Below, one piece after another: positions 1,306 to 1,533 of a stretch of DNA of 30,285 nucleotides. Position 1 is the stretch's first letter. Each line of letters starts with the position of its first letter. The position numbers and the translations under genes were made by a program. Source of the DNA: a virus (taxonomy: Duplodnaviria; Caudoviricetes); IMG/VR virus record IMGVR_UViG_3300032303_000212, positions 1-30,285 of that record; one strand, 5' to 3'. The notes beneath the pieces are model-generated. The model worked only from the letters and a program-made list of their open reading frames with translations, was not told the origin of the DNA and made no database searches.

Positions 1306-1533
1306 TTGTAACGCACTATTTCTAATGCGTGTATTAAAGCACTCTACATGGGTACGTACCCACTTGTCACCTTTCGGCTAGAGAATGCTTTAATACGCTT
1401 AGATTTTTTACACTACAACTAGTGCTTCATCCCTAAGGCCGCCCGTTCGTCCATGTTTAAAGTGCAGACTAGGTCCTCGTTACCTATACACACTGTCTCT
1501 CCACTACGCAACTTTATAGCTGCTTCTTAATTA
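1306..1533 (-). ncRNA. Putative ~230-nt structured RNA heading the tRNA array
   Basis: Starts at the predicted TSS of the 1540-1568 promoter; 11-bp stem GTATTAAAGCA/TGCTTTAATAC, two GAAA-tetraloop hairpins on the minus strand, further hairpins; no ORF in the track. Confidence 0.6.

Follow-up and report, generated by a model that had tools for sequence, protein, structure and literature searches.

A double-pseudoknot RNA, apparently undescribed, at the head of jumbo-phage tRNA arrays and its candidate role in antitermination

Directly ahead of a phage tRNA array lies a region whose minus strand folds into several stems, which raises the question of what this RNA is and whether it works as a separate product or as part of the tRNA transcript. 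The window, meaning the whole 30,285-nucleotide stretch analysed here, is a 30-kb virus record with genes for ribonucleotide reductase (RNR), IscU/NifU, rubrerythrin, PAAR and long fibres. Relatives of this phage are represented by genome records of up to 320-365 kb. A search with the 686-aa neighbour protein gave no cultured relative, and the best RNR match reached only ~60%.

Fold of the conserved core

The first-pass annotation had proposed a structured non-tRNA RNA of ~230 nt (1306-1533) at the head of the tRNA operon, on the minus strand. Both the RNA and its strand were borne out: covariation is strong, the core lies ahead of the first tRNA, and the minus strand of 1306-1533 has a folding z-score of −3.48, none of 200 shuffles being as good, vs −1.79 for the plus strand. 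Its extent has to be revised. Comparison of homologues indicates that the RNA structure is real and that the conserved unit is a ~100-nt 5' core (1395-1494, minus strand; match to covariance model R1 at 1373-1501 with 111 bits), not one 230-nt RNA, the 3' features being variable.

The core consists of helices P1 to P5 and two pseudoknots, all on the minus strand. P1 (1494-1490/1465-1461) and P3 (1469-1466/1452-1449) form an H-type pseudoknot with an A-rich loop 3 (1460-1454), and hairpin P2 (1486-1482/1474-1470) is inserted in its loop 1. The second pseudoknot joins the 7-nt P2 loop (1481-1475, AACG(A/C)G(R)) to the J3/4 strand (1439-1447, AAYGGKCG(G)) by base pairing. There follows the P4-P5 domain (1395-1439) with P4 and its short extension (1437-1432/1403-1398), a purine-rich internal loop and P5 (1425-1410), which varies in length and in loop type. 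The stem now called P4 and the hairpin now called P5 had been recognised at the outset, and P4 proved to covary; P1, P2, the P3 pseudoknot and the second pseudoknot, all covarying, had been overlooked.

The main alignment was made with MAFFT from 75 of the 118 usable sequences, and no structure was used in fitting it. Its 12 top mutual-information pairs are all predicted pairs. For the named structure, 88.1% of cells are paired vs 61.4% after shuffling, and two-sided changes occur in 23 of 24 pairs. Among the single helices, all five pairs show two-sided changes in P1 (93.5% paired), in P3 (90.3%) and in P4 (85.9%), and P2 is 100% paired over the three pairs counted, its closing pair occurring as AU, UA, CG, GC or GU. 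P3 is 4-8 bp long in 122/122 sequences. A second set of mostly more distant members, in an alignment that was fitted to the model, gave 81.1% paired cells and a covariation score of 0.37. On these alignments every helix of the core covaries and the fold is well supported.

A non-functional chance structure or an inherited spacer would agree with the minimum free energy of the core, which lies at shuffle level. The folding-energy signal of the region comes from the 3' stems P6 and P7 (z = −7.05); the core alone reaches a z of only −0.04 because its pseudoknots are not modelled. Against such a reading stands the covariation score of 0.63 vs 0.18 for shuffled alignments and 0.07-0.12 with slid partners. 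Repeated switches of the tertiary pair speak against it as well, and chance matches to our search patterns, used as controls, show neither P2 nor coupling of the tertiary pair. Covariation thus largely refutes the chance or spacer reading, which we regard as very improbable.

The second pseudoknot could be followed through its lone loop-junction pair 1475:1445. Across 190 cores this is GC in 123, AU in 63, UA in one and GA in three, so that a G-C, A-U or U-A pair is present in 187/190. On a rough tree built with those columns masked, 21 switches were counted, and 7/7 independent pairs were concordant (p = 0.016). The neighbouring combination 1477:1442 is AG in 178, CG in 10 and AU in two of the 190. 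Pairing of 1479-1478 with 1441-1440 is only inferred, because those adjacent C-G pairs are invariant.

Downstream of the core, the 3' stems appear in the comparison as variable carriers around a conserved 5' unit. P6 (1331-1396, minus strand) is a long stem with an exchangeable insert, here a three-way junction with a GNRA arm and a palindrome, and may be an RNase III-type processing stem; P7 (1311-1330, minus strand) is a hairpin, GNRA-capped here and variable and often enlarged in homologues. The stem 1396-1386/1341-1331 with its extension and the terminal hairpin 1330-1311, both described by the first-pass annotation, are present on the minus strand and correspond to P6 and P7. Its GNRA arm (1378-1369) and palindrome (1362-1349) also exist in the window, the former being kept in only 9/190 homologues and the latter being exact in only 5/190. 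A proposed long-range 6-mer pairing between a loop and the 3' end is found in 6/190 and has to be dropped as a family feature. A further hairpin on the 5' side (1508-1523, minus strand) is lineage-specific and outside the family, being present in 10/190 homologues and absent in L004 and L043. Inserts of P6 differ between homologues, and in L266 tRNA-Gln lies within a short stem at the corresponding place. The P6/P7 loops of L164, L170, L096, L099, L109, L163, L167 and L266 hold differing structured inserts that are common to several lineages; these include a tRNA-like or tmRNA-like fragment and the whole tRNA-Gln of L266. Such inserts may be further small RNA families freed by processing.

Distribution and genomic context

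Eleven related loci were available at the start, from a neighbour-protein search and an initial pattern. Looser patterns run over IMG/VR and metagenomes added hundreds more among the matches listed, and the whole-collection estimate is ~850 stretches. P2 length is bimodal among 230 distinct pattern matches, with 0-2 pairs in 79 and at least 4 in 147. The first set kept comprised 145 sequences with at least 4 P2 pairs and an A after AAAC, two having been removed by eye; the final set, obtained with a wider filter and used for all counts out of 190, holds at least 190 distinct cores, drawn from contigs of phages and metagenomes. Of the 111 distinct matches listed by the last loose scan, 89 had at least 3 P2 pairs, four of them representing a coding-region look-alike. 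The search patterns themselves impose the invariant motifs. The same motifs are present in 12 members that the covariance model picked from 65 protein-selected loci, and in the two cores of G006 and G007.

The family looks confined to phages, since a pattern scan of GTDB, with a pattern that misses the second subfamily, gave seven stretches of which the covariance model accepted a single true member, on a short (6-kb) MAG contig (L297). BLAST of the element or of three core variants against 50,697 GenBank phages yielded short chance matches or nothing. No core was present in 14 leader or early-region stretches of T7- and SP6-like phages (that of PSP2-22 without a recognisable leader), and none of the 8 and 27 stretches from two anchored scans of IMG/VR was core-like.

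In the window the core is preceded by a leader and followed by tRNAs, all on the minus strand. A sigma70-type promoter match (10 of 12; 1866-1894) stands ahead of a leader ORF of 44 codons that uses 19 of the 20 amino acids (1664-1798), a candidate attenuator. The ORF is followed by the leader's intrinsic-terminator-like hairpin with a U-rich tail (1597-1637), and leader positions 1680-1674 are predicted to be able to pair with the terminator's 5' arm. A strong sigma70-type match with an extended −10 (11 of 12; 1540-1568) then lies directly ahead of the element, and its prediction is what suggests that the element comes first in its transcript. The array starts with tRNA-Gln(TTG) (1226-1299) and continues with tRNA-Asn(GTT) (1016-1094), tRNA-Arg(ACG) (866-942) and tRNA-Thr(GGT) (87-160) past the contig end. 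The Gln, Arg and Thr genes were found by ARAGORN and Rfam, the Asn gene at a relaxed ARAGORN threshold only, being missed by the defaults of both programs.

The spacers of this array hold features of their own on the minus strand. Between tRNA-Gln and tRNA-Asn (1225-1100) several hairpins are possible (z = −0.78), and near-identical contigs cover this spacer in two runs; it is possibly another small RNA. A stem with an A-rich and U-rich interior lies directly before tRNA-Arg (1010-950), and similar stems recur ahead of tRNAs in L105, L110 and L147. Between tRNA-Arg and tRNA-Thr (844-170) there is an ORF with a methyltransferase fold, which is not at that place in L003.

The position of the core relative to the tRNAs is nearly constant. 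Of the 110 homologues whose downstream DNA extends for 1.4 kb, 109 have same-strand tRNAs after the core (108 at the default threshold), and 105 loci have on average 0.4 tRNAs upstream vs 6.8 downstream. The first tRNA after the core represents 16 different amino acids and begins at a distance of 141-1363 nt. In eight homologues a tRNA-Met is located ~240-310 nt upstream of the core, apparently before the leader, as checked in L108 only.

Upstream, the leader architecture recurs. A terminator-like hairpin precedes the core in 150 of the 157 homologues with upstream DNA, and lies within 300 nt in 108/115. Among the 157, the core abuts the terminator in 43, a promoter match lies between them in 48, and another spacer, mostly a short ORF, in 59. 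In those 108 homologues the leader ORF ends 47-63 nt before the terminator U-tract (null 208/1780). The encoded peptides have a mean length of 46 residues, with a mean of 19.4 different amino acids, and the 3' ends of the ORFs can pair with the terminator 5' arm at a mean of −13.9 kcal/mol vs −2.8 kcal/mol for a control segment. In L043, L094, L272 and L276 the core begins a few bases after a −10 match; directly following it in these four lineages, the core needs no upstream sequence.

Two kinds of protein gene are found in the interval between leader and core. A ~52-aa helical protein family with an invariant lysine and an invariant arginine is encoded at L163 (1308-1478, plus strand) and at about 55 other loci, its stop codon lying 3-10 nt before the core. 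It received no Pfam, PHROG or Atlas assignment, and as an obligate partner of the core it was rejected, being missing from two complete genomes that carry the core. In L140 the gene that immediately follows the leader terminator, before the core, encodes the alternative ribosome-rescue factor ArfA (1358-1471, plus strand; Pfam 31.9 bits, cut-off 25.5), and a similar ORF is present in L102 and L281.

At the scale of whole genomes, 20 large records were inspected, 15 selected for carrying the core and five selected via a protein. The core is single-copy in 19 of them, including two complete genomes picked by protein. In the five genomes mapped it stands before a tRNA block that spans several kb; small clusters of 2-3 tRNAs elsewhere lack it. 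In G004 a larger tRNA block begins 16 kb downstream without its own copy of the core. The exception in copy number is the 524-kb record G016:C1, with copies at 126617-126749 and 416810-416942 in two leader-RNA-tRNA regions that are 81-90% similar and have a similar tRNA order, reflecting either a duplication or a chimeric record.

Comparison with known RNAs

With Rfam 15 at the gathering threshold the window gave tRNAs only. At E ≤ 10 the region 1306-1533 had nothing except a sub-threshold plus-strand ctRNA match touching 1513-1533, and at E ≤ 0.05 eight homologue loci had no match over the core. Together with the positive covariation among homologues this sustains the initial suggestion of an uncatalogued family, as it does the exclusion of tmRNA and RNase P RNA: ARAGORN and Rfam were negative over the element for a tmRNA with its tRNA-like domain, CCA end and tag frame, and Rfam was negative for RNase P RNA. 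The latter is built around a P4 helix with conserved regions CR I-V, and the invariant motifs of the core differ from it on inspection. T4 species 1 and 2 are non-tRNA RNAs inside a tRNA cluster with tRNA-like ends; they share with the core their origin in a phage tRNA cluster and differ from it in these two respects. Likenesses to glmS, pistol, group I, RNase P, T-loop and 23S P-loop were inspected by eye and dropped, the strand order or the covariation being at odds with them. The core RNA was not described in the literature within reach, subscription papers falling mostly outside it. A survey of viral structured RNAs comprises 10,006 candidate alignments, and the core motif was not found in its readable tables, the alignment supplements lying outside the search (Fremin et al. 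2023, PMC10690425). The core thus apparently represents an undescribed double-pseudoknot RNA family of jumbo phages from a large uncultured clade, as judged from its sequences.

The large phage RNAs GOLLD and ROOL are likewise found near tRNA islands, according to PMC12286853. They are far larger than the core, lie inside the arrays at 3-10 kb from it, and their models do not match it. Identity with GOLLD was rejected, as the RF02032 3' domain was not matched and separate GOLLD genes lie kilobases downstream within the same tRNA arrays in L417 (3416-3882, minus strand) and L420 (6283-6747, minus strand), two of the 12 sources scanned.

Could the core be a small ribozyme of a new kind, self-cleaving or otherwise active in processing, whose cut frees the tRNA precursor from the leader or from an ORF upstream? 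Small ribozymes have a comparable size, double-pseudoknot cores, invariant junction bases and helices free in sequence, all of which the core resembles, and the core often begins 3-10 nt past a stop codon. There is also precedent for small double-pseudoknot RNAs linked to phage tRNA genes: PMC10879173 describes HDV-like theta ribozymes in phages, which share the HDV topology and have their catalytic C in J4/2, and proposes that they act on tRNA 3' trailers. The core, single-copy and in one context only, lies 5' of the array and has another strand order, its first pseudoknot strand following the inserted hairpin and the partner coming directly after the A-rich loop; with no match to an Rfam ribozyme, an HDV-like or theta identity was rejected. 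A cleavage function also has to contend with the absence of a conserved base immediately 5' of P1, with the free distance to the first tRNA, and with predicted starts at P1 in several lineages, which leave nothing to remove. We therefore consider a ribozyme improbable.

A closer parallel in placement is provided by the put RNAs of phage HK022. According to PMC9378689 and PMC8632103, these are factor-independent processive antiterminators that bind the beta-prime zinc-binding domain and suppress termination at a distance. putL lies just after a promoter and putR ~270 nt after one, and put acts over at least 10 kb, also on Rho-dependent terminators (PMC9378689). As far as these sources describe put, both it and the core would be phage cis RNAs of 70-100 nt that follow a promoter or a short ORF, precede a long unit and have no dedicated protein apparent; the core family shows this placement, which appears to mirror that of putL and putR (PMC9378689). 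The structures differ: put, ahead of early protein genes, consists of two stem-loops (~70 nt) with a short triple helix, whereas the core precedes tRNA arrays, has no sequence match to put, and by covariation is a five-helix double pseudoknot with an internal-loop domain, so that identity with put was rejected. Bacillus EAR and E. coli RARE are also named as RNA-based antitermination elements in PMC8632103, and would resemble the core as structured RNAs proposed to let polymerase pass downstream termination; they belong to bacterial chromosomal operons, and the core has no Rfam match.

A proposed cis-acting role at the head of the array and its alternatives

Since the core is always first while the array is otherwise shuffled, its position argues for a role in cis over that of a free, separate ncRNA. 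We tentatively propose, at somewhat less than even confidence, that the core is a cis-acting, RNA-only processive antitermination element of the put/EAR type. Such a function would fit a core that is present once, ahead of a long and largely untranslated unit, at no set distance from the tRNAs and with no partner gene. The leader-peptide switch upstream would set whether polymerase goes into the tRNA array, and the core RNA would set whether polymerase completes it. The core would fold co-transcriptionally, its invariant loop and junction bases offering a binding surface to polymerase or to a Nus/Rho-level factor, and host RNA polymerase would be kept elongating through several kb of mostly untranslated RNA. 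The threat countered would have to be Rho-dependent polarity and not intrinsic terminators, because the arrays are nearly free of the latter: eight array regions contain 0-1 intrinsic-terminator-like sites each, and several internal promoter matches. The same scarcity, together with the internal promoter matches, would lessen the need for antitermination. The downstream block of G004 without a core copy counts against it. RNA-library contigs of relatives overlap the core in three of four runs, these being assembled contigs with possible DNA carry-over and without ends or strand; in three RNA runs the structural genes at 5.7-8.4 kb are almost uncovered, with the same possible carry-over in the contigs. 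We give these contigs no weight as evidence of expression.

A likeness to Nus-factor sites was also considered. Like the boxB/boxA sites of rrn operons and T7-like phages, the core has a hairpin followed by a boxA-like strand at a similar distance, and like rrn sites it would serve long untranslated transcripts. In T7/T3-like leaders a conserved hairpin carries a loop of the AACGAAA type, with boxA following at 18-20 nt (L496, 790-825; also L498, L499, L620-L622 and L624), and the core family has an AACGAGR loop 14-21 nt before its boxA-like strand. Aligned with one gap, this strand reaches at least 9/11 in 122/190 cores vs 18/190 antisense and 39/950 shuffled sequences, related sequences counting as one observation. 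The strand is base-paired in P1 with covariation, needs a one-base insertion to align, scores ungapped no better than antisense, and has A at the third position in 175/190, where boxA has U; for these reasons it is not a canonical NusB/E site, and boxA identity was rejected. The T7/T3-type spacing hints at ancestry or convergence at most, because the sequences are related and the strand is paired. In L621, L622 and L624 an extra insertion of ~100 nt lies upstream of the AACGAAA-loop hairpin.

The fixed 5' position would also be predicted by a 5'-cap or processing role, in which the core either protects the 5' end of the polycistronic tRNA precursor or senses a ligand as an aptamer, and so governs how stable that precursor is or how fast it is processed. 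The core is always 5'-most, its invariant bases are pocket-like, and the sharp boundary that P1 sets on its 5' side can fall on a predicted start. Many homologues have an ORF or leader upstream, so that the core is not at the 5' end of the transcript. An expression platform is also missing, P7 being without a conserved U-tract and most homologues without a following ribosome-binding site. We rate this candidate as rather unlikely.

Alternatively, the core could act in trans as a stable RNA that is cut from the precursor at P6/P7 as processing stems and is induced along with the tRNAs when translation is under stress; its target would be the ribosome, a tRNA or a host defence protein. Its compact tertiary fold with many invariant unpaired bases is consistent with this, and the same operons hold translation-rescue cargo, with ArfA just upstream in L140 and GOLLD further down the array in the two sources mentioned. 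In a specific form, J3/4 would pair with the 16S decoding-centre strand: it is an exact 8-nt complement of E. coli 16S 1399-1406, a length reached anywhere in 16S by 58/3000 shuffles, and 8/10 positions agree between the P2 loop region and 16S 1497-1506. This complementarity was noticed post hoc. It stops at 8 nt, being extended in 0/190 cores on one side and 13/190 on the other, and is broken in ~15/190. The variable J3/4 bases are better explained by pairing in cis than by 16S because they track their loop partners, with U-A in L202 and A-U in L026 and L441. Moreover, a trans-acting RNA has no need to stay first in a shuffled array, and GOLLD does not. An RNA acting in trans therefore seems unlikely to us, although it is a serious alternative.

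Returning to antitermination, the features above could mark an RNA-only polymerase modifier of a new structural class. The double pseudoknot would load on host polymerase after a translation-sensing leader switch, and the phage would sense any charged-tRNA shortage and then transcribe its 5-13 kb array termination-resistant in one run. This fuller proposal, drawn from sequence comparison, is a possibility that we put forward with some doubt.

The number of RNA-only antiterminators named so far is very small, put, EAR and RARE being the cases in the available part of PMC8632103. A new fold that covaries richly, spans a clade and keeps a fixed place is a directly testable candidate for another one. 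From the alignment one can already specify the ~100-nt construct, with its compensatory mutants, on which probing, cleavage assays and structure work would rely. Should the core turn out instead to be a ribozyme or a ribosome-binding RNA, it would be a new class of either. If it is an antiterminator, it would explain how these phages transcribe long, mostly untranslated tRNA arrays with the host polymerase.
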